IMG/VR virus record: IMGVR_UViG_3300006217_000028
Source of the DNA: a virus
Lineage: Duplodnaviria; Heunggongvirae; Uroviricota; Caudoviricetes
Direction: 5' to 3' (one strand)
Length of the DNA stretch: 12,346 nucleotides
Numbering within the stretch: position 1 is the first letter of the stretch; the number at the start of each line of letters is the position of its first letter. Below the pieces are notes generated by a model. That model did not search any database and was not told where the DNA came from. It saw only the letters and a list, made by a program, of their open reading frames with translations. The position numbers and the translations under genes were made by a program. Positions 1 to 11,089 of the stretch are shown one piece after another.

Positions 1-56
1 GTCAAGCCGCAATAAAGGATAGCTGTCATACCTCGCGAACCTATGGTGAGTATATA

Positions 57-86
57 GGAGGGGGTCTCTCAAAACACACCCCCTCC
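57..86. repeat. 9-bp inverted repeat/hairpin GGAGGGGGT-N12-ACCCCCTCC
   Basis: Bases 57-65 (ggagggggt) are the exact reverse complement of 78-86 (accccctcc). Confidence 0.7.
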
Positions 87-94
87 CTGCATCG

Positions 95-104
95 CGCCAC
101 CCCT
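95..104. other. Candidate cohesive-end (3' cos) site CGCCACCCCT
   Basis: GC-rich 9-10-mer in non-coding DNA just upstream of a possible TerS, an HNH nuclease and TerL, followed by an A-tract and an imperfect dyad (AAAAATTCTCCGGGGGATATTTT). It resembles the CGCCGNNCT-type 3' overhangs I recall for actinophages with the same protease-capsid fusion; that recollection is unverified. Confidence 0.4.
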
Positions 105-1668: not shown

Positions 1669-1699
1669 GGGGCTATGGAAACATAGCCTCTTTTCTTTT
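1669..1699 (+). terminator. Intrinsic terminator with GAAA tetraloop
   Basis: Stem ggGGCTATG-GAAA-CATAGCCtc followed by TTTTCTTTT, directly after the connector stop codon. Confidence 0.75.
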
Positions 1700-1722
1700 G
1701 TGTGGAAAGGAGGAATTTCAAA

Positions 1723-2346
1723 ATGGGCAACCTATTGACCCATCATGGTATCAAAGGCCAAAAATGGGGCGTACGTCGTTTCCAAAACAGAGACGGTACG
1801 CTTACTTCAGTTGGAAAGAAACGGTATGGAGATAATGACACCAAGACCCTTACAGAGAAAGGCGTTATGCGCCGGTTGAAGACCGACACCTCCGGCACCG
1901 GAAGTTCAACATCAAAATCATCTTCCGGTAAGAAATCTGTCAAGGATATGTCTGATGCAGATCTTACCAGTCAAGTCAAACGGATGAATCTCGAAAAGCA
2001 GTACAAGAAACTGTCAAAAGAGGATGCCGGTCCTTCAAAGCTTGAAAGCGCAAAGCGCGCCGTTGACTCTGCTTCGGGGCTTGTAAATCAGGCAAAGAAC
2101 ATGAACCGTTCTGGCTCAAAAAAGATACGTCCAGACCTTAGCAAGATGTCTGATAAGGACCTGCGTGATCTGATAACTCGCGAGAATCTGGAACGACAGT
2201 ACACTGATCTTTTCGGTAAAGACGCGGCAACAGTGTCACGCGGTAAGAAAATCTTCGACAACGTTCTGGAATATGGTGGTGGTGTTCTTGCTGTCGGCAG
2301 TTCGGCTCTTGGTATTGCTATGGCGATCAAGGAATTGAGGAAGTGA
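1723..2346 (+). CDS. HHGIKGQKWGVRR-motif phage protein (DUF7211-like), probable minor head/internal virion protein, 207 aa
   Basis: SD AAAGGAGG at 1706-1713 and ATG at 1723. N-terminal LTHHGIKGQKWGVRRFQN motif, two 22-aa repeats and a C-terminal Gly/Ala-rich hydrophobic helix. The DUF number is from memory. Confidence 0.65.
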   Translation: MGNLLTHHGIKGQKWGVRRFQNRDGTLTSVGKKRYGDNDTKTLTEKGVMRRLKTDTSGTGSSTSKSSSGKKSVKDMSDADLTSQVKRMNLEKQYKKLSKEDAGPSKLESAKRAVDSASGLVNQAKNMNRSGSKKIRPDLSKMSDKDLRDLITRENLERQYTDLFGKDAATVSRGKKIFDNVLEYGGGVLAVGSSALGIAMAIKELRK

Positions 2347-2350
2347 TACC

Positions 2351-4099
2351 ATGTCTCTTTCCAATACCGCCACCCCATATTATTACGGACAATTCCGAAA
2401 AGCGGTAATGAACGGCGAGATTCCAGTGTGCGATACGATAGTCATGGAAATGCAGCGGATAGATGAACTTATCGAGAATCCGCGGTATTACTACGATGAC
2501 GAAGCGGTAAACGGGTTTATCTATTTCTGCGAGGACGAGCTGACTTTGACAGATGGCGCCGACCTGCATCTGTTGGATACATTCAAACTTTGGGCAGAGC
2601 AAATCTTTGGATGGTACGAGTTTGAAGAGCGGAACGTGTACGAGCCATATCCGGATGGTCACGGAGGCCGTTATGTCAGAAAGCTAATAAAGAAGCGGCT
2701 GGTGAATAAGCAGTATCTTATCGTTGGGCGTGGAGCGGCAAAGACTCAGTATGCTTCCTATCTACAAAATTATTTCCTTAACGTTGATACAACGACTACA
2801 CACCAGATTACAACCGCTCCGACCATGAAACAAGCTGAAGAAGTGCTTTCTCCCATACGGACCTCCATCGTTCGGTCGAGGGGGCCAATGTTCAAGTTTC
2901 TCACTGCCGGATCTCTCCAGAATACCACTGGCTCAAGGGCAGATAGGGCACAGCTTGCGCCTACCAAAAAGGGTATCCAGAATTTCTTCAATGGTTCCCT
3001 CTTGGAAGTGCGCCCCATGAGTATCGATAAACTTCAGGGTCTACAGGTCAAGGTGGCAACCATAGACGAATGGCTGTCAGGCGATGTGCGGGAGAACCCT
3101 ATAACCGCAATCGAGCAAGGCGCCGCAAAGGTCGACGATTACCTTATTGTAGCGATAAGCTCGGAGGGCACGGTACGCAACGGTATCGGCGATTCCATCA
3201 AAATGGATTTGATGCGGATACTTCGTGGTGAAGACGGAGCCTATGAGCCAAACACTTCTATCTGGTGGTATAAGCTGGATTCAAAGGAGGAGGTTGGCGA
3301 CCCGGCTAAATGGGCAAAGGCAAACCCGAATCTTGGGCTTACTGTGAAGTATGATACCTATGAAAAAGAGGTTCGTCAGGCAGAACGCGACCCATCTACT
3401 CGAAATGATATCCTCGCAAAGCGATTCGGGATACCGACAGAGGGGTATACGTATTACTTCACATATGAAGAGACCCTTGTCCACCGCAGGAGAGAGTTCT
3501 GGAGAATGCCTTGTTCACTGGGGGCCGATCTATCTCAGGGCGATGATTTCTGTGCGTTTACATTCTTGTTTCCGTTGAAGAACGGCGAATTCGGGATAAA
3601 AACCAGAAATTACATTTCCTCGTCAACGATGGCGAAACTCCACATGGCAATGCGCGTCAAGTATGAAGACTTTATGAAAGAGGGAAGTTTGGTCGTACTT
3701 GAGGGCACAGTCCTTGATATGATGGAAGTCTATGAGGACTTAGACAATCATATAGCCAAGTGCGAGTATGACGTGTGCTGCCTTGGTTTTGACCCGTATA
3801 ACGCCCGGGAGTTTGTTGAGCGCTGGGAGACTGAAAACGGCCCATATGGGATTGAGAAGGTCATACAGGGAGCAAAAACGGAATCCGTACCTCTGGGTGA
3901 GCTTAAGAAACTCGCAGAGGAACGGATGCTTTTGTTTGACGAGGATTTGATGACCTTTGCCATGGGTAACTGTATTGCCATGGAAGATACCAACGGTAAC
4001 CGTAAGCTGATGAAGAAACGGTATGACCAAAAGATAGACGCCGTGGCGGCGATGATGGATGCGTATATCGCGTATAAGCTCCATAAGGACATGTTCTAA
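2351..4099 (+). CDS. terL: Terminase large subunit
   Basis: 582 aa with Walker A LIVGRGAAKT, Walker B VATIDE, and RNase H-like nuclease motifs GADLSQGDDF and KIDAVAAMMDA. Confidence 0.97.
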   Translation: MSLSNTATPYYYGQFRKAVMNGEIPVCDTIVMEMQRIDELIENPRYYYDDEAVNGFIYFCEDELTLTDGADLHLLDTFKLWAEQIFGWYEFEERNVYEPYPDGHGGRYVRKLIKKRLVNKQYLIVGRGAAKTQYASYLQNYFLNVDTTTTHQITTAPTMKQAEEVLSPIRTSIVRSRGPMFKFLTAGSLQNTTGSRADRAQLAPTKKGIQNFFNGSLLEVRPMSIDKLQGLQVKVATIDEWLSGDVRENPITAIEQGAAKVDDYLIVAISSEGTVRNGIGDSIKMDLMRILRGEDGAYEPNTSIWWYKLDSKEEVGDPAKWAKANPNLGLTVKYDTYEKEVRQAERDPSTRNDILAKRFGIPTEGYTYYFTYEETLVHRRREFWRMPCSLGADLSQGDDFCAFTFLFPLKNGEFGIKTRNYISSSTMAKLHMAMRVKYEDFMKEGSLVVLEGTVLDMMEVYEDLDNHIAKCEYDVCCLGFDPYNAREFVERWETENGPYGIEKVIQGAKTESVPLGELKKLAEERMLLFDEDLMTFAMGNCIAMEDTNGNRKLMKKRYDQKIDAVAAMMDAYIAYKLHKDMF

Positions 4100-4120
4100 A
4101 CCAGTATGTCCGCAATTTCA

Positions 4121-4162
4121 TAAGGAGGGAGCACCTACCGGAAACGAAGGTGATGCTATAAA
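4121..4162 (+). promoter_or_regulatory. Structured translation-initiation region of portal (two SD-like elements and a GAAA hairpin)
   Basis: TAAGGAGG at 4121-4128, hairpin 4130-4157 (CACCT/AGGTG stem, CG-GAAA-CG apex) that contains AAGGTG, and ATG at 4163. Confidence 0.5.
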
Positions 4163-5410
4163 ATGAATAACGAATCCATCGGTTCCAGGTTCAAACGAGC
4201 CTGGAATCTTTTTTTGAACCGAGATCCCACCTATGGATACGGTGATTATGGGTACAGCTCCGGCCGCAGGCCTGACCGCATCCGGCTTACCAGAGGGAAT
4301 GAGCGTTCTATTATCACCTCTGTTTATAACCGTATCTCAACGGACGCTGCGGCGGTTGATATCAAACACGTTCGTTTGGACAGTAATAGGCGTTTTCTGG
4401 AAGAAATCGACTCGAATTTCAATAAATGCCTTACCACAGAGGCCAACATCGACCAGACGGGCCGTGCCTTTATGCAGGATGTTGTGATGTCTATGTTGGA
4501 TGAAGGCTGCGTTGCGATTGTTCCTGTGGATACGGATACCGACCCGGATTCTACTGGGTCCTACAACATTCAGTCGATGCGGACGGGGCAGATCATTGAA
4601 TGGTATCCAGAGCATATCCGCGTCCGCGTATACAACGACAGAACTGGCCAGAAACAAGATGTTACTGTTCATAAGAGTTCGGCGGCTATAATAGAAAACC
4701 CATTTTATGCTGTGATGAACGAGCCTAACTCGACTATGCAGCGGCTTATTCGAAAACTGAATATTCTGGACGTTATAGACGAGCAGAGTGGATCGGGGAA
4801 GCTGGACATAATTGTCCAACTTCCTTTTTCTGTAAGGAACGACGTCAAGCGCAAGCAAGCTGAAGCAAGGCGGAAAGATCTTGAGGAACAGCTATCCAAA
4901 TCCAAATACGGCGTTGGATACATTGACACAACGGAGCATGTAACGCAGCTGAATCGCCCGGTTGAAAACAAGCTGATGTCCCAGATTGAATACCTAACGA
5001 GTATGCTTTTCAGCCAGTTAGGTATCACTCAGAGCATATTAGATGGTACAGCCGATGAGCAGACGATGCTGAATTATTATAACCGTACTATCGAGCCTAT
5101 TCTGTCTGCTATTACCACTGAACTAAAGCGTAAGTTCCTGACTAAAACAGCTCGCTCTCAAAAGCAGTCGGTTGAGTTCTATCGCGACCCGTTCCGTTTG
5201 GTACCGGTCAGCAGCATGGCTGAGATCGCGGACAAGTTTACCAGGAATGAAATCATGACGTCCAACGAGATCCGGCAGATTGCTGGTATGATGCCGTCCA
5301 GCGATCCGAAAGCCGACGAATTGAGGAACTCAAATCTAAGCGCTCCAAATGGGGGATACCCATCAAATTCCGAGAAGGAGGAAAATCAAAATGAAGCCAA
5401 AGAAGTATGA
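4163..5410 (+). CDS. Portal protein (HK97-type)
   Basis: 415 aa directly after TerL; GKLDIIVQLP, LFSQLGIT..IL.GTA and MTSNEIRQIAGM patterns are typical of HK97-family portals. Confidence 0.93.
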   Translation: MNNESIGSRFKRAWNLFLNRDPTYGYGDYGYSSGRRPDRIRLTRGNERSIITSVYNRISTDAAAVDIKHVRLDSNRRFLEEIDSNFNKCLTTEANIDQTGRAFMQDVVMSMLDEGCVAIVPVDTDTDPDSTGSYNIQSMRTGQIIEWYPEHIRVRVYNDRTGQKQDVTVHKSSAAIIENPFYAVMNEPNSTMQRLIRKLNILDVIDEQSGSGKLDIIVQLPFSVRNDVKRKQAEARRKDLEEQLSKSKYGVGYIDTTEHVTQLNRPVENKLMSQIEYLTSMLFSQLGITQSILDGTADEQTMLNYYNRTIEPILSAITTELKRKFLTKTARSQKQSVEFYRDPFRLVPVSSMAEIADKFTRNEIMTSNEIRQIAGMMPSSDPKADELRNSNLSAPNGGYPSNSEKEENQNEAKEV

Positions 5411-7334
5411 CTTTGGAGGCTGGGCCACCCGAAACAATCTGCGCTGCTCCGATGGTAGGACCATTGTGAGAGACGCATTCAAAGATTGCGATGGATTGAC
5501 CCGGCCTCTGGTCTGGAATCATCAGCACAATAGTCCCGATAACGTTCTCGGCCATGCTGTGCTGGAGAACCGCGCGGACGGCGTGTATGCTTACTGCTCT
5601 TTCAATGACACAGAAAACGGCCAGAAAGCGAAAAAGATCGTCGAGCATGGTGATGTAGTTGCCCTGTCTATCTTCGCCAATCAGCTCAAGCAGGACGGTT
5701 CCCGTGTCATTCACGGAGCAATCAAGGAGGTCAGCCTGGTGCTGGCTGGCGCCAATCCAGGGGCGCTTATCAACTCGGTTATGGCTCACGGCGAGGAGAC
5801 CGACGCCGCTGAAATTTACAATGGTCTGGATTATATCGAGTTTAGTCTGGAGCATAGTGAGGACGAACGGGAGTCTGAGGATAATTCAAGCGAGCAGACA
5901 GAGGAGCCACCTGCTGAGAATGACATTGCCCACTCGGATGATGGCGAAAAAGTCGAATCCACAAAGTCCGGTAAAGGAAAGACCCTTGAAGATGTACTTA
6001 AAACTCTTAGCAAAGAGCAATTGACGGCTGTCTATGGGGTTCTCGGCGCGGCATTCGTGGCTGAAATTGAGGACCGCGAGGATAACAGCTATACTGGTGA
6101 ACCAGAAGAGGACGAGAACAAAGTAAAACATTCCGAAGGAGGAAATGATTCTATGAAGAAACATCTGTTTGACCCGGAAAACAATAACGAGGGTGTCGTG
6201 CTGGCTCATTCTGACCAGGAAATGATTCTTGAGGCGGCCAAATCCAAAAGTATCGGCAGCTTGAGAGATGCTATCGAAATGTTTGTGGAACAGAATTCTA
6301 CCACTCTCAAGCATGGTATCGACGACATTGACTCCCTGTTCCCGGACTATCGCGACGTAAAGCCCGGCGCTCCTGATATGGTCACCCGCGACCAGGGGTG
6401 GATTACCGCAGTCATGAATAAGACCCATAAGACCCCTTTCAGCCGCATCCGCACCCGTCAGACTGATCTGCGCAGCAAAGACCTTCGCGGCAGTGGTTAT
6501 AAGAAAGGTGAGAAGAAACAGAACGTGGTTAATATGAACGCTCTTACTCGGACTACAGACCCGCAGACTATCTATGTTAAGGATCACCTCGACCGCGACG
6601 ACATTGTCGACCTTGTTGATTTCGACGCGGTTGAGTATCAGTATGGCGCTATGCGCCTGCTGCTGAACGAAGAGGTTGCCACTGCCATTACGATAAGTGA
6701 CGGCCGTGAGGCTGATGATAAGCAGAAGATCCACCAGCAGCATGTTCGCTCTATCTGGCATGATGACGAGCTTTACTGTATTCATGTTGATGTTGACGTT
6801 GAAAAAGCCCGCAATGAACTTCAGGGAACCGATACCGGCGCTAATTTCGGCGATAACTTTGTGTATTCCGAAGCTGTCATCACCGCAGCGCTCCATTCCC
6901 GAGAAAACTTCAAGGGCAGCGGCACCCCAGACTTCTTCTGCACTCCACACCTGCTGAACATCATGCTGCTTGCGCGCGACCGCAATGGCCACCGTATGTA
7001 TGAGTCCCGGTCTGACCTGGCCGCCGCGCTTAACGTCGGTGAAATCTATACCGCAGAACAGTTTGAAGGGCAGATTCGCACGGATGATGACGGCAATAAG
7101 CATAAGCTGCTGGGCATCTTTGTTAATCTCCTGGATTACACCATCGGTGCCGCAAAGGGCGGAGAGATTACTCGTTTCAACCAGTTTGACATCGACTTCA
7201 ACCAGGAAAAGTATCTGTTGGAGGCTCGTATGTCTGGCGCTCTGAACCGCATCAATTCTGCTATTGCTCTGGAGGAACCGGTTAATCAGCCGAGCGCCCG
7301 GACTCCCGGCAACACGAACGCCACCGCAGCCTAA
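5391..7334 (+). CDS. Prohead maturation protease / acidic linker / major capsid fusion protein (647 aa)
   Basis: SD AAGGAGG at 5375-5381 and ATG at 5391. The N-terminal ~135 aa resemble an HK97-type protease (LVWNHQH, ALSIFAN, EVSLVLAGANPGA), followed by an acidic linker and an HK97-fold capsid-like region (FDIDFNQEKYLLEARMSGAL). No other capsid gene is present. Confidence 0.9.
   Translation: MKPKKYDFGGWATRNNLRCSDGRTIVRDAFKDCDGLTRPLVWNHQHNSPDNVLGHAVLENRADGVYAYCSFNDTENGQKAKKIVEHGDVVALSIFANQLKQDGSRVIHGAIKEVSLVLAGANPGALINSVMAHGEETDAAEIYNGLDYIEFSLEHSEDERESEDNSSEQTEEPPAENDIAHSDDGEKVESTKSGKGKTLEDVLKTLSKEQLTAVYGVLGAAFVAEIEDREDNSYTGEPEEDENKVKHSEGGNDSMKKHLFDPENNNEGVVLAHSDQEMILEAAKSKSIGSLRDAIEMFVEQNSTTLKHGIDDIDSLFPDYRDVKPGAPDMVTRDQGWITAVMNKTHKTPFSRIRTRQTDLRSKDLRGSGYKKGEKKQNVVNMNALTRTTDPQTIYVKDHLDRDDIVDLVDFDAVEYQYGAMRLLLNEEVATAITISDGREADDKQKIHQQHVRSIWHDDELYCIHVDVDVEKARNELQGTDTGANFGDNFVYSEAVITAALHSRENFKGSGTPDFFCTPHLLNIMLLARDRNGHRMYESRSDLAAALNVGEIYTAEQFEGQIRTDDDGNKHKLLGIFVNLLDYTIGAAKGGEITRFNQFDIDFNQEKYLLEARMSGALNRINSAIALEEPVNQPSARTPGNTNATAA
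6153..7334 (+). CDS. Putative internally initiated, in-frame capsid isoform (393 aa)
   Basis: AAGGAGG at 6136-6142, 10 nt before the in-frame ATG 6153 (MKKHLFD), at the linker/capsid boundary. Confidence 0.6.
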   Translation: MKKHLFDPENNNEGVVLAHSDQEMILEAAKSKSIGSLRDAIEMFVEQNSTTLKHGIDDIDSLFPDYRDVKPGAPDMVTRDQGWITAVMNKTHKTPFSRIRTRQTDLRSKDLRGSGYKKGEKKQNVVNMNALTRTTDPQTIYVKDHLDRDDIVDLVDFDAVEYQYGAMRLLLNEEVATAITISDGREADDKQKIHQQHVRSIWHDDELYCIHVDVDVEKARNELQGTDTGANFGDNFVYSEAVITAALHSRENFKGSGTPDFFCTPHLLNIMLLARDRNGHRMYESRSDLAAALNVGEIYTAEQFEGQIRTDDDGNKHKLLGIFVNLLDYTIGAAKGGEITRFNQFDIDFNQEKYLLEARMSGALNRINSAIALEEPVNQPSARTPGNTNATAA

Positions 7335-7354
7335 GGTAAAGGAGGAAATTCAAA

Positions 7355-7666
7355 ATGGCAAAGTATTTCGGGAAAATCGGCTATGGGGTGTCCGAAACAA
7401 CGAAGCCTGGGAAGTCTGTCCCTAAAATAACCGAGAGGGAATATCACGGCGACATACTCCAATTCAGACGGCGGTGGGAGAACGGAGAGCATCTTAATGA
7501 CAACCTGAATGTTGACAATAAGATTAGCATCGTAGCCGACCCCTTTGCCTATGAGAATTTCCATGCAATTCGTTATGTCTGGTGGATGGGTGCAAAATGG
7601 AAAGTGATAAGTGCAGAGGTTCAGTACCCGAGACTTATTCTAACCATAGGGGGCGTGTTTAAGTGA
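7355..7666 (+). CDS. Putative head-closure (head-to-tail stopper) protein
   Basis: SD AAAGGAGG at 7338-7345; 103 aa beta-rich protein right after capsid, with IRYV.W.G.KWKVISAEVQYPRLILTIGGV matching the SPP1 gp16-like pattern. Confidence 0.7.
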   Translation: MAKYFGKIGYGVSETTKPGKSVPKITEREYHGDILQFRRRWENGEHLNDNLNVDNKISIVADPFAYENFHAIRYVWWMGAKWKVISAEVQYPRLILTIGGVFK

Positions 7667-7965
7667 ATACCCTAGATGATCTGCAAGCAATTTTGACCGA
7701 CTTGCTTGATATTCCCGGTTGGTATCAGCCCCCGGAAACATCAGAAATGGAGTATCCCTGTTTTGTGTTCCAACTGGACAAGGCTGCCGCAAAATATGCT
7801 GACAACTCCATATACCAGTACATGAAACGGTACAAAGTTACCGTCATAGACCGAGAGCCAGACTCAGTGACTCCAGATAAGATGTTGTCCCTGCCTTATT
7901 GCAGCTTTGACAGGTTCTATACAGCATCCAACCTGAATCACTGGGTCTATATTTTATACTTTTAG
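7663..7965 (+). CDS. Putative tail terminator/completion protein
   Basis: 100 aa with a GTGA overlap, WYQPP..MEYPCFVF and LNHWVYILYF, immediately before the major tail gene. Confidence 0.72.
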   Translation: MNTLDDLQAILTDLLDIPGWYQPPETSEMEYPCFVFQLDKAAAKYADNSIYQYMKRYKVTVIDREPDSVTPDKMLSLPYCSFDRFYTASNLNHWVYILYF

Positions 7966-7976
7966 GAGGTTTTTAT

Positions 7977-8660
7977 ATGAGAGCTAAGTGGGACGAAATT
8001 GGCAAAAGATATTACGAAACTGGCGTAGACCGGACCATGCTCTATAAAATGAAAGATAACGCATATCCTTTGGGTGTGCCATGGAGCGGAATTACCAGCG
8101 TAGAAGAAAGCCCTTCCGGGGCCGAGTCTAACGGTTTTTACGCGGACAATATCAAGTATTTCAACTTGACTTCTGCCGAGGAGTATGCTTGTACCATTGG
8201 CGCTTATATGTATCCGGATGAGTTTGCCGAGTGTGACGGCTCTGTGGAGGTTGCTGATGGCGTCCGTATCGGCCAGCAGACACGCGCACCGTTTGGTTTC
8301 TGCTACCGCACGGTCTTGGGGAACGACACGAAGAAGAACAAATATGGTTATAAGCTGCACCTGGTCTACGGCTGCGAAGCATCGCCCTCTAGTAAAGAGC
8401 ACGGTAGCGTCAACGACAGTCCGGAACCTGCTGAGATGTCCTGGGAGGTTAATACAACGCCTGTTCCGGTAAAGGGTCATGAACCTACCGCAACCATGGA
8501 GGTAGACTCTACCAAGACGCCGCCGGAGAAGCTGAAGCTGCTGGAAGACATCCTGTATGGCAAAGATCCAACATCCGACGATTCCGATGACGGCACAGAT
8601 CCCCGGCTGCCTCTGCCTGACGAAGTGATTGCTCTTGTCGGCATTGCGGCCGTTGCATAA
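7977..8660 (+). CDS. Major tail (tube) protein
   Basis: SD TAGGAGG; 227 aa with YETGVDR, WSGITSVEESPSGAE, FYADNIKY and YKLHLVYGCEASPS, a siphovirus tail-tube pattern; followed by a terminator and chaperones. Confidence 0.88.
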   Translation: MRAKWDEIGKRYYETGVDRTMLYKMKDNAYPLGVPWSGITSVEESPSGAESNGFYADNIKYFNLTSAEEYACTIGAYMYPDEFAECDGSVEVADGVRIGQQTRAPFGFCYRTVLGNDTKKNKYGYKLHLVYGCEASPSSKEHGSVNDSPEPAEMSWEVNTTPVPVKGHEPTATMEVDSTKTPPEKLKLLEDILYGKDPTSDDSDDGTDPRLPLPDEVIALVGIAAVA

Positions 8661-8677
8661 ACAACATATATGATATT

Positions 8678-8712
8678 GGCCGTGTCCTTGGAGATGCGGC
8701 CTTTTTTTATTT
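8678..8712 (+). terminator. Intrinsic terminator after the major tail gene
   Basis: Stem GGCCGTGTC (8678-8686) / GATGCGGCC (8693-8701) with two G-U pairs, followed by TTTTTTTATTT. Confidence 0.8.
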
Positions 8713-8730
8713 CTGAAAGGAGAAGACATT

Positions 8731-9153
8731 ATGCTTAAAAGAACGATTAAGTACATCGATTACAACGGCGTCGAGCGCGAGGAGGATTTCTACTTCAATC
8801 TCACAAAGGCTGATGTGGCTGAGATGGAGCTTACTACTGTCGGCGGCCTTGAGGCCATGTTCAACAAGATTTCCCAAGCACAGGACATTCCGGCTGTGGC
8901 TAAAGTCTTGAAGGGGATTATCCGTAAGGCTTATGGCGAAAAGAGTCCGGATGGCCGACAGTTTATCCGTACTCCTGAGGTCAAGGACGCTTTCTTTAAC
9001 ACCGAGGCATACTCGGAGCTTTTCACAGAGTTGGTTACTGATCCGGTAGCTCTGAATGACTTTATCCGCGCTATCCTGCCAAAAGCACCAGCAGCGGCAG
9101 TCGTGCCAGCAACCACCACCGCGTCACAGCCGGTTCTTCTTCCGACAAACTGA
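8731..9153 (+). CDS. Tail assembly chaperone
   Basis: SD AAAGGAG; 140 aa with Y.DYNG.ER.EDFYFNLTKA and AYGEKS.DGR.F, located between the major tail and tape measure genes. Confidence 0.8.
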   Translation: MLKRTIKYIDYNGVEREEDFYFNLTKADVAEMELTTVGGLEAMFNKISQAQDIPAVAKVLKGIIRKAYGEKSPDGRQFIRTPEVKDAFFNTEAYSELFTELVTDPVALNDFIRAILPKAPAAAVVPATTTASQPVLLPTN

Positions 9154-9175
9154 TTTTATCTAAGGAGGGATGGGA

Positions 9176-9721
9176 ATGCTCCGAATCACAGTACCCGAAA
9201 AAGAATTGTGGGACGAACGCAACCAGGTGTTTATCCAGGTTAAAGAGCAGACTTTGCAGCTTGAGCATTCCCTTGTCTCTCTTTCAAAATGGGAGTCGAA
9301 ATGGCGCAAATCGTTTTTGAAACATAAGGATAAGTCTTTGGAGGAAACAATCGATTACGTTCGATGTATGACCGTTACGCAGAATGTTAATCCCAATGTT
9401 TATCTATGCCTGACAGATGGCAACATTGCTGACGTAAACCGCTACATTGCTGATCCTATGACTGCTACATACTTGTCTAATGACGATTCTTCAGAGGGAA
9501 AAAGCAATGACGTAGTCACAGCAGAACTTATTTATTACTGGATGATAGCTTTCAATATTCCAGTTGAATTTCAGAAATGGCATTTGAACCGTCTGCTCAC
9601 CTTAATTCGGGTGTGCGAGATGAAGAACCGTTCCGGCAAAAAGAAAAATCCTAATGACATTATGCGCCGTAACAGGGCTAGAAACGCCTACAATCGTAAA
9701 CGGTTCAATTCAAAAGGATAG
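9176..9721 (+). CDS. Second tail assembly chaperone-like protein (181 aa)
   Basis: Own SD TAAGGAGG at 9161-9168; ATG 9176 has 7-nt spacing whereas ATG 9170 is too close. LEHSLVSLSKWESKW and IPVEFQKWHLNRLLTLIRVC, with a basic C-terminus. Confidence 0.65.
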   Translation: MLRITVPEKELWDERNQVFIQVKEQTLQLEHSLVSLSKWESKWRKSFLKHKDKSLEETIDYVRCMTVTQNVNPNVYLCLTDGNIADVNRYIADPMTATYLSNDDSSEGKSNDVVTAELIYYWMIAFNIPVEFQKWHLNRLLTLIRVCEMKNRSGKKKNPNDIMRRNRARNAYNRKRFNSKG

Positions 9722-9734
9722 GAGGAACTTAATT

Positions 9735-10709
9735 ATGAGTAACAGCAATCTTAGCTGTATGCGGCTGATCAGCCCCAACCGCAACAGCCCCAGAAATCAC
9801 AAAATCGACACCATCTCCATTCACTGTGTGGTGGGACAGATGGGCGTGGAGGCCCTGTGTAATGAGTTCAGCCGGTCCTCGAAGGGGGCCAGTTGCAACT
9901 ACGGCATCGGCTATGATGGCCGTATTGGCACGTCCGTGGATGAGGAAGATCGTTCGTGGTGTACCTCAAGCTGGGAGAACGATAACCGTGCTATCACCAT
10001 TGAGTGTGCCAGCGATGCGTTCTACCCTTACGCCATCAACGCCAATGTCTGGAAATCCCTGATTGAACTGTGCGCGGACATTTGCAGGCGCGATGGCATC
10101 TCAAAGCTGGTGTGGTCCACGGACAAGTACACCCGCATGAACCACCTGAACGGTTGCAACATGACAGTGCACCGGGACTACGAAAACAAATCCTGTCCCG
10201 GCGATTACATCTACAGCAGGCTGGGCCAGATCGCCAAAGAGGTCAACCAGAAGCTCAGCGGCGCACCCGCCGGACCCTTCAAGCCCTACCAGGGACAGGT
10301 GAACGCGGATGATGGCCTCAACTGCCGCACGGCTCCGGTCAGCGGCAGCGTCCTCAAGACCTACCTGGACGGTACGGTGCTCACCATCACCAAAGAGGAT
10401 GGCAACTGGGGCTACTGCGGCGAGGGCTGGGTGTGCCTGGATTACATCAATAAAATCGCGTCGGCGAAAGACCCGGCGGCAAAGGAGGATTCTATCATGG
10501 ATGGCAAGACCTTTAAGAAAATGTACGACGAAATCAACCCCACCTACAACACCATCGACGAGGTGCCCAGCTACTGGCGGGCCGACATCAAAGAACTGGT
10601 GGACAAGGGCATCATCAGCGGTGTGGGCGGCGGCAAGCTTGGTTTGACCAAGAGCGACTGCAAGGCTGCTGTGATTGCCAAACGAGTCTTCGAAAAAATG
10701 GAGAAGTAG
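9735..10709 (+). CDS. N-acetylmuramoyl-L-alanine amidase (Amidase_2-type) with SH3b and SLH-like C-terminal modules; endolysin or virion-associated lysin
   Basis: SD AGGAGG and ATG 9735. Zn-amidase motifs ISIHCVVG, AITIEC and VHRDYENKSCPG; SH3b-like region about 10287-10454 (GLNCRTAP...GWVCLDY); SLH-like region about 10551-10680 (EVPSYWRADIKELVDKGIISG). Confidence 0.88.
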   Translation: MSNSNLSCMRLISPNRNSPRNHKIDTISIHCVVGQMGVEALCNEFSRSSKGASCNYGIGYDGRIGTSVDEEDRSWCTSSWENDNRAITIECASDAFYPYAINANVWKSLIELCADICRRDGISKLVWSTDKYTRMNHLNGCNMTVHRDYENKSCPGDYIYSRLGQIAKEVNQKLSGAPAGPFKPYQGQVNADDGLNCRTAPVSGSVLKTYLDGTVLTITKEDGNWGYCGEGWVCLDYINKIASAKDPAAKEDSIMDGKTFKKMYDEINPTYNTIDEVPSYWRADIKELVDKGIISGVGGGKLGLTKSDCKAAVIAKRVFEKMEK

Positions 10710-10711
10710 AC

Positions 10712-11089
10712 ATGATAAGTTTCAGCCACAAGGGTGACTTCTCAAAACTTACCGGCTTTCTGGAGAGGGCGAAAGGAATTGTGCATCTGAGCGCTCTCGA
10801 CCGGTATGGCCGGAGGGGAGTAGCCGCCCTTGCGTCTGCAACGCCGGTTGAGTCTGGTGAGACCGCCGCATCATGGTCTTACGAAATTCAAAATGGAGAT
10901 GGAACCGCTGCTATTACCTTTAAGAATTCACACATCGTAGACGGCGTGCCCATAGCCATAATCCTGCAATACGGGCATGGAACCGGAACAGGCGGCTGGG
11001 TGGAAGGGAGAGATTATATCAATCCTGCCATTCAGCCTATCTTTGACGAGATTGTGGAAGAGGCTTGGAGGGAGGTTGCCCAGCTGTGA
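10712..11089 (+). CDS. HK97-gp10-like neck/tail component
   Basis: 125 aa with ATPVESGETAASW, AIILQYGHGT and YINPAIQPIFDEI, the TPVxTGxLxxS / EYGT / xxxPA pattern of the gp10-like family. Confidence 0.75.
   Translation: MISFSHKGDFSKLTGFLERAKGIVHLSALDRYGRRGVAALASATPVESGETAASWSYEIQNGDGTAAITFKNSHIVDGVPIAIILQYGHGTGTGGWVEGRDYINPAIQPIFDEIVEEAWREVAQL

Follow-up and report, generated by a model that had tools for sequence, protein, structure and literature searches.

Here we present evidence that the eight-nucleotide word TCAAAATG, usually followed by G, is an oriented and selected cis signal in the late genes of a tailed mouse-gut phage (Caudoviricetes; IMG/VR record IMGVR_UViG_3300006217_000028), and is neither a peptide motif nor a mere start-codon context. 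The window analyzed, a stretch of 12,346 nucleotides, forms the left end of a phage genome present as one contig of 76,115 bp (contig position 1 corresponds to window position 102; pieces of the contig from 30 to 76 kb are labelled L003 to L005). The word is restricted to the gene strand of one late block just downstream of the gene for a putative phage RNA polymerase (P0001), and is therefore most simply read as the promoter of that polymerase. We give about even chances to the proposal, based on sequence comparison, that TCAAAATG(G) is the minimal late-promoter core of P0001, or at least its recognition and initiation site.

Copies of the word in the window and in the genome

The window contains six copies of TCAAAATG:

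1718..1726, + strand: copy 1 (TCAAAATGG); its ATG starts a 207-aa gene (1723-2346) directly upstream of the large terminase gene (TerL), with the Shine-Dalgarno (SD) sequence AAGGAGG 4 nt upstream.
3198..3206, + strand: copy 2; within TerL at +847 nt, in the frame aTC AAA ATG G (peptide GD(S/T)IKM).
5386..5393, + strand: copy 3 (TCAAAATGA); its ATG starts the capsid-protease fusion gene (5391-7334).
7350..7358, + strand: copy 4; its ATG starts a 103-aa gene (7355-7666; phrog_4270).
9284..9292, + strand: copy 5; within a 183-aa tail-region gene (9170-9721), in the frame TCA AAA TGG.
10888..10896, + strand: copy 6; within a 125-aa gene (10712-11089), in the frame xxT CAA AAT GG, 198 nt ahead of the tape-measure gene.

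These are the positions (1718, 3198, 5386, 7350, 9284 and 10888) given by an earlier, sequence-only reading of the window, and, as it had stated, all are on the + strand with none on the - strand. Dinucleotide-preserving shuffles of the window yielded a mean of 0.72 copies and a maximum of 4. The enrichment which that reading claimed for the 9-mer was confirmed, TCAAAATGG being found five times against 0.14 expected, and five of the six TCAAAATG copies have G next. Its description of the surroundings also held on re-inspection: three copies lie in near-identical initiation regions (AAGGAGGAAWW-TCAAAATG), in which the ATG is used as the start codon 4-5 nt past AAGGAGG (genes at 1723, 5391, and 7355), while the remaining three are intragenic (in TerL, the tail-region gene, and the small gene preceding the tape measure), each in a different reading frame. 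A peptide motif is ruled out as the explanation by this use of three frames. Copy 1, with which the series in the genome opens, follows a strong terminator-like hairpin with a T-tract at a distance of 18 nt.

Across the whole genome the word occurs 16 times on the + strand, always between contig positions 1617 and 30407, and the other 45 kb hold none on the + strand and one on the - strand. An order-3 Markov model predicts 1.2 copies in this arm (Poisson P ~2e-13). The genome-wide distribution that had been proposed is thus incorrect, the word being limited to the first 30 kb and its virion and lysis genes (HNH endonuclease, terminase, portal, capsid-protease fusion, major tail protein, 2579-aa tape measure, tail proteins, and lysis genes). 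Outside the arm are found a tyrosine integrase, a D5-type primase-helicase, a methylase, nucleotide-metabolism genes, and many small genes. One-mismatch variants of TCAAAATG are not enriched in the genome (50 on the + strand vs 48 on the - strand).

Regular spacing, another feature noted from the window, extends over the entire arm. The gaps between copies span 985 to 3561 bp, and their coefficient of variation is 0.33, compared to 0.95 for random placement (P ~1e-5), and the tape-measure gene alone holds three evenly spaced copies. The proposed enrichment over codon-preserving controls was likewise observed: 12 copies are intragenic, whereas shuffling synonymous codons among the late genes gives 1.2 +/- 1.0, and none of 1000 shuffles reached 12.

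Conservation of the word in related phages

Every relative examined carries TCAAAATG on the gene strand of its virion-gene arm. The loci of these relatives are mutually related, and the counts below are not independent events.

Human-gut contig (polymerase 54% identical): gene strand 13, 12 of them in the arm downstream of its polymerase gene; opposite strand 2.
Lactococcus P078, first 50 kb: gene strand 10; opposite strand 0.
Gordonia Schwartz33, first 50 kb: gene strand 6; opposite strand 0.
Arthrobacter Nason, first 50 kb: gene strand 4; opposite strand 0.
Streptomyces Annihilus: gene strand 3; opposite strand 0.
Rhodococcus ReqiPepy6, first 50 kb: gene strand 9; opposite strand 0.
80 IMG/VR contigs (1.09 Mb): gene strand 445; opposite strand 2.
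Five complete IMG/VR genomes: gene strand 72; opposite strand 3.

When seven genomes are considered together (two gut phages, including the one studied here, and the Lactococcus, Gordonia, Arthrobacter, Streptomyces, and Rhodococcus phages), copies in the late arms number 59 on the + strand and 0 on the - strand, and those in the remainder of the genomes 2 and 3, respectively. In the 80 IMG/VR contigs, copy density steps from about 0.05 to 0.5-1 per kb approximately 1 kb before TerL, and in the five complete IMG/VR genomes (one of which IMG/VR classes as a provirus) the copies are grouped in a single arm of 23-30 kb. In the IMG/VR set the median gap is 1643 bp; 82% of gaps fall at 1-2.5 kb, and only 1.6% are below 500 bp, vs 25% for a Poisson process. 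The strand polarity suggested by the six window copies therefore amounts to 16:1 in the genome and 445:2 in the 80 IMG/VR relatives.

The word is common to phages of Firmicutes and Actinobacteria with GC contents ranging from 33 to 61%. GC-rich relatives contain 3-6 copies only, clustered in head genes; a degenerate form of the motif was considered for these phages and rejected, as one-mismatch variants show no clear enrichment. The identity of the 8-mer in phages of Lactococcus, gut Clostridia-type, Arthrobacter, Gordonia, Streptomyces, and Rhodococcus hosts, that is, across two host phyla, implies that its reader must be phage-encoded, and excludes a host Chi site, restriction or modification word, or host sigma site. 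Literature searches on the word in phages, on YonO promoters, on the actinophage clusters, and on ReqiPepy6 turned up no description of it.

Several individual copies are orthologous. The copy in TerL is kept in 76 of 80 IMG/VR relatives, and lies at +847 nt in the Streptomyces, Gordonia, and Rhodococcus phages as it does here, and at +832 in Lactococcus P078. Its peptide context is conserved (GD(S/T)IKM(D/E)L). Of six named genomes, five retain both synonymous sites of ATC AAA, the Streptomyces phage among them despite its 61% GC (Arthrobacter Nason has AAG), and the third positions of adjacent conserved TerL codons are just 32-89% identical. The start codon of the capsid fusion lies inside the word in four lineages (the present phage, Gordonia Schwartz33, Streptomyces Annihilus, and Arthrobacter Nason), the placement of copy 4 on the start codon of the gene after the capsid is orthologous in Arthrobacter Nason (two lineages in all), and a tail gene has a copy at +105 to +111 nt, with similar flanks, in five lineages, four actinophages among them. 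Conservation of intragenic copies, as foreseen from the window, is therefore found, and taken together the reading frames, codon shuffles, 445:2 polarity, and kept synonymous sites uphold the sequence-only reading in its central claim of an oriented cis signal beyond peptide or start-codon context.

The sequence logo consists of weak A/T upstream, TCAAAATG, and G in 74-79% of sites, after which it falls to background; in actinophages the sequence after the word is often GGAG. Among 370 unique sites, the ATG is a start codon in 43%, while 44% (163 sites, occupying all three frames) are deep intragenic, 11% intergenic, and 2% near gene ends. In the Rhodococcus, Gordonia, and Lactococcus phages, several copies are intergenic and precede a start codon by 10-45 nt, frequently in the form TCAAAATG-GGAG, and these occupy the classical promoter position.

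A second repeated element is present in relatives in the region just past the virion arm, where a long early repeat that includes CCTATAATG is found 7-14 times ahead of small genes (in actinophages ...TCCTATAATGAGACCCCTA; in Lactococcus P078 TACATACCCTATAAT). This CCTATAATG-type repeat was not found in the present phage or its human-gut relative, both of which have the polymerase and TCAAAATG. Given that the two gut phages lack the early repeat and have the polymerase and the word, the polymerase is tied more constantly to TCAAAATG than to the CCTATAATG-type repeat.

The candidate polymerase P0001

P0001 is a 939-aa protein encoded outside the window at contig 73044-75863 (L005:13044-15863). 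Its gene is the last of the contig, and would be directly upstream of the arm on the circularised genome; a gene for a polymerase of about 900 aa with two barrels is found just upstream of the late arm in these phages generally. Along its entire length the protein matches phrog_4291 ('RNA-dependent RNA polymerase'); it also gives a weak match to Pfam RdRP and carries helix-turn-helix (HTH) domains at its N- and C-terminal ends. Its metal loop SGADFDGDT (DFDGD), typical of two-barrel polymerases, shows no variation across 22 homologues and a further 4 distant ones from phages. An AlphaFold model, which is of low confidence (pLDDT 59.7) and was used solely for the identity of the top fold matches, returned as best Foldseek matches QDE-1 (E 4.5e-5) and gp62 of phage P74-26 (probability 0.99), two-barrel polymerases both, though with TM values of only about 0.2; RDR2 and Rpb1 were also among the top matches. 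Searched by sequence against the PDB, the polymerase matched only the HTH regulator SinR, and weakly. By its DxDGD loop and modelled fold, P0001 is predicted to be a single-chain two-barrel (double-psi beta-barrel) RNA polymerase of the YonO / crAss gp66 / QDE-1 type.

Homologues were detected by tblastn in 250 phage records, in nearly all of which the final large gene, at the right end, encodes them, and the protein database contains at least 8,000 metagenomic homologues, several of which are named transcriptional regulators. Homologues are also present on contigs of 145-180 kb, one of which is named Eubacteriales. The recognition helix of the N-terminal HTH (E/D-S-S/T-V-R) is kept down to 38% overall identity. 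Residues 12-29 contain a near-invariant HYG..RRSGRYPWGSG, kept as far as Lactococcus phage 1706. P0001 corresponds to the 'HTH putative RNA polymerase' that has been proposed as a signature of the actinophage supercluster and the Lactococcus/Faecalibacterium phage group (bioRxiv 10.1101/842583).

The late-promoter reading

Two features that would be anticipated of the late promoter of a phage polymerase are present: the phage encodes an RNA polymerase of its own (P0001), and the motif is limited to the class of genes served, lies on the gene strand, and is conserved with the polymerase. Among the roles offered by the sequence-only reading (DNA organisation, packaging or ejection, late transcription or antitermination, RNA binding), a late-transcription element fits best, with the amendment that its scope is the late arm only and not the genome.

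In such a scheme, the polymerase would be made from the last gene of the early/middle region and would recognise the gene-strand 8-mer, possibly through one of its two HTH domains, with RNA beginning at or beside the final G of the word. Approximately 16 start points, 1-3.6 kb apart, would sustain transcript levels over the 30-kb virion and lysis block. A word that contains ATG would be cheapest to keep on a start codon, using the free SD-to-ATG spacer, and in a packed genome this would explain why 43% of the sites are on start codons. In long genes such as the tape measure, the word would be written into the coding sequence in any permitted frame.

A number of observations weigh against this proposal. 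RNA starting at or after the G would leave out the start of the very gene whose start codon carries the copy, and with 43% of the 370 sites on start codons and a further 44% deep in genes, site geometry differs from the gene-by-gene placement of promoters. If start codons are simply the cheapest place, it is striking that the one of the capsid gene is used repeatedly. Ruler-like spacing and the tape-measure copies suggest one site per couple of kb and not one per gene, and ordinary promoters need no such regularity. YonO of SPbeta is highly processive, and serves an entire late operon from one promoter (PMC5467207). The structure model of the enzyme is of low confidence. In the annotation of ReqiPoco6, the homologue of the polymerase in Lactococcus phage 1706 is labelled structural; such a label would suggest an early, injected enzyme, and a packaged enzyme an early or DNA-entry role. 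Finally, a related phage without the polymerase was sought among isolates and none was found (TerL identity drops from 56% to 25% with nothing between), and since polymerase, motif, and virion module are co-inherited with no outgroup, co-occurrence cannot single out the polymerase among conserved phage proteins.

Four mouse-gut metatranscriptome runs contain close relatives, as assembled contigs only, which cannot show RNA ends. In run X15, one assembled contig stops 9 nt ahead of the capsid-start copy and the next begins 2 nt past it at the highest depth, extending to the terminator after the major tail gene; in run X17, from a separate study, an assembled contig begins 7 nt past the TerL copy. 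Other contigs extend through copies uninterrupted, and contig starts are thus not counted as evidence.

A variant that retains P0001 as reader, and that we think improbable, is that the copies form a polar, periodic lattice read as a ruler by a polymerase moving along the left arm, and are not, or not only, promoters. In one version, a minimal two-barrel enzyme working without host elongation factors may use the word as a signal for reloading or processivity. In another, by analogy with T7 and N4, a polymerase carried in the virion may use the copies as entry points, drawing the first 30 kb into the cell by transcription, and the same sites may be reused late, after the polymerase gene, the last to enter, is expressed.

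Comparison with known systems

Late promoters of phage T4 consist of the 8-mer TATAAATA, which is recognised by gp55 together with gp33 and the gp45 clamp. The resemblance to TCAAAATG is considerable, as both are near-invariant A/T-rich 8-mers with no second element, found on the gene strand only at about one per 2 kb of late genes, with five of eight positions identical; however, in T4 the host polymerase is redirected via a sigma-like protein and the sites are upstream of genes, whereas here a phage polymerase is presumed and most sites are on start codons or intragenic. Class II/III promoters of T7 are similarly specific to a phage polymerase, in one orientation, and placed every few kb across the region served, but they are 23 bp long and read by an unrelated right-hand polymerase. 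The density of about one site per 2 kb matches both T7 and T4.

Stoperators of Cluster A phages are dispersed asymmetric words that depend on the immunity repressor. Together with the start-associated sequences (SAS) of Cluster K, as cited in PMC7302621, they share with TCAAAATG dispersal, asymmetry, orientation with transcription, and frequent location at gene starts. They differ in being 13 bp long and only intergenic or at ribosome-binding sites, whereas 163 of the 370 sites here (44%) are deep intragenic.

Another parallel is phiKZ, in which late promoters of the non-virion polymerase are T(-3)ATG(+1), all four bases being required (PMC7598289). Common to both are a very short, strict word over the transcript start, ending in ATG, and a two-barrel phage polymerase serving late genes. 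The word here is longer, at 8-9 nt (TCAAAATG-G), enough to be specific by itself, the phiKZ enzyme is multisubunit while P0001 is a single chain of about 900 aa with HTH domains, and the overlap with the transcript start is, in our case, one that we infer. Two-barrel polymerases of P23-45 also use short motifs (10.1101/2022.12.01.518664). YonO of SPbeta, the single characterised phage enzyme of this broad kind, transcribes late genes from a promoter whose sequence is undetermined (PMC5467207). Like the role proposed for P0001, that of YonO is the transcription of virion and lysis genes in a temperate Firmicute phage by a single-chain two-barrel polymerase; it differs in having one mapped start for the whole operon, and P0001 belongs to a distant family (phrog_4291) with terminal HTH domains.

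Alternative explanations

Strict confinement to the gene strand of a single transcription block would also be expected of a signal acting after initiation on the late unit, either as a site of pausing or reloading that the elongating polymerase or a partner would read in the non-template strand or in the RNA, or as an RNA-processing site at which the 30-kb transcript is cut into units of about 2 kb. Almost half of the sites being deep in genes, and a ruler-like spacing that ignores gene boundaries (as the three even tape-measure copies do), would suit something needed every few kb. We nevertheless regard such a signal as unlikely, if the most serious competitor, given that no conserved flanking structure was seen (beyond a stretch of about 13 nt, information content is at background level), the scanned proteins yielded neither a dedicated phage RNase nor an elongation factor, and intergenic copies upstream of SD sequences resemble promoters. 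To our knowledge, a periodic elongation signal is also without precedent. Less probable still is a DNA-level signal apart from transcription, such as strand-specific nicking in the style of T5, Pseudomonas phage tf, or phiKMV (for example by the left-end HNH endonuclease) or polar packaging or ejection sites of the left arm. In tf and T5, one-strand nicks have consensus sites whose exact word, single strand, and kilobase spacing resemble the pattern of TCAAAATG; moreover, an HNH endonuclease gene (phrog_4321) is conserved beside the terminase region here and in relatives, in which the arm adjoins a cos end. Nicking or packaging, however, would predict sites over the whole chromosome instead of the late block, an HNH gene adjacent to TerL is the usual cos-cleavage helper, and the 3-6 head-gene copies of GC-rich relatives make a poor lattice for a mechanical role.

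Repressor sites that block read-through into late genes, as the stoperators of Cluster A mycobacteriophages do, would account for asymmetry, orientation with transcription, and the many copies at gene junctions, and the phage is temperate, with a tyrosine integrase. We consider this very improbable, as relatives in which no repressor or integrase gene was found (Microbacterium Count and Camille; PMC7302621) keep the word, the early region is without it, and 8 bp is short for an operator; Count carries the polymerase and TerL lineage. The absence of any dedicated signal, with the word reflecting shared translation-initiation context and a conserved peptide, or a host-set site (Chi or restriction-related), is in our view scarcely credible. 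Location of 43% of sites on start codons after a strong SD, and of the TerL copy within a conserved peptide, is what it would predict, but it leaves unexplained intragenic copies in three frames at ten-fold over codon shuffles, the kept synonymous positions, and a strand ratio of 445:2, and the same word in phages of Firmicutes and Actinobacteria rules out a host-specific site.

Other features of the window and genome

Genes and terminator-like elements of the window that bear on the late arm are as follows:

654-1079: HNH endonuclease gene (phrog_4321), which adjoins the terminase region here and in relatives.
1669..1700 (contig 1568-1599), + strand: terminator-like hairpin and T-tract, ending a small upstream block (HNH endonuclease, virion protein) just ahead of copy 1.
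2351..4099, + strand: large terminase gene (TerL), the anchor of the late arm.
5391..7334, + strand: capsid-maturation protease / major capsid fusion gene.
8678..8711, + strand: terminator-like hairpin and T-tract, after the major tail protein gene (7977-8660).

A further strong terminator-like hairpin (12 pairs), with a T7 run, is located at 4181-4218 inside the first 20 codons of the portal gene; it might halt the host polymerase while a flap-less phage polymerase passes through. An endolysin/amidase-like gene (phrog_20388, phrog_7698) occupies 9735-10709, among tail genes ahead of the tape measure. Window positions 1-101 are absent from the stored 76-kb contig, have no match elsewhere in that contig, and include a GC-rich inverted repeat at about 57-87 (GGAGGGGGT...ACCCCCTCC).

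Terminator-like sites number 34 vs 17.5 expected in contig 30-50 kb, and 19 vs 20.2 in the first 20 kb of the late arm. Two enriched words in contig 30-76 kb, TTATATTT and TGATATTT, are mostly T-rich hairpin tails followed by an SD; as candidate early -10 boxes they were rejected, many copies being the T-rich tails of GC hairpins (intrinsic terminators). Contig-wide, TATAAT occurs 6 times on the + strand vs 28 on the - strand, though nearly all genes are on the + strand. The tyrosine integrase gene lies at L003:3276-4463, and the phage is temperate on the basis of this gene. Also in the non-structural region is a gene for a 320-aa protein with DUF5662 and a C-terminal Ntox50 (bacterial toxin 50) domain (L005:1789-2751). 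At L005:4322-5866, a dCTP-deaminase-like gene stands near a DUF1599 'nucleotide modification associated' gene, and the pair hints at a possible modified base in the phage DNA.

Implications

Approximately 250 sequenced phages carry the P0001 family, which is still labelled as a helix-turn-helix regulator in many databases, and an exact 8-mer shared from Lactococcus to Streptomyces phages provides a directly testable promoter candidate for these polymerases. Ruler-like spacing combined with copies in coding sequence and kept synonymous sites makes TCAAAATG a clean case of selection for an intragenic DNA word. Should the promoter reading be true, it would supply a phage-polymerase promoter for an uncharacterised polymerase family, and the lattice property could prove new. 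It would also offer a data point on how minimal two-barrel polymerases find promoters, and a very small orthogonal polymerase-promoter pair working in both Firmicutes and Actinobacteria. More broadly, the transcription programme would then be defined for a group of phages that is abundant in soil, in dairy fermentations, and in the guts of mice and humans.

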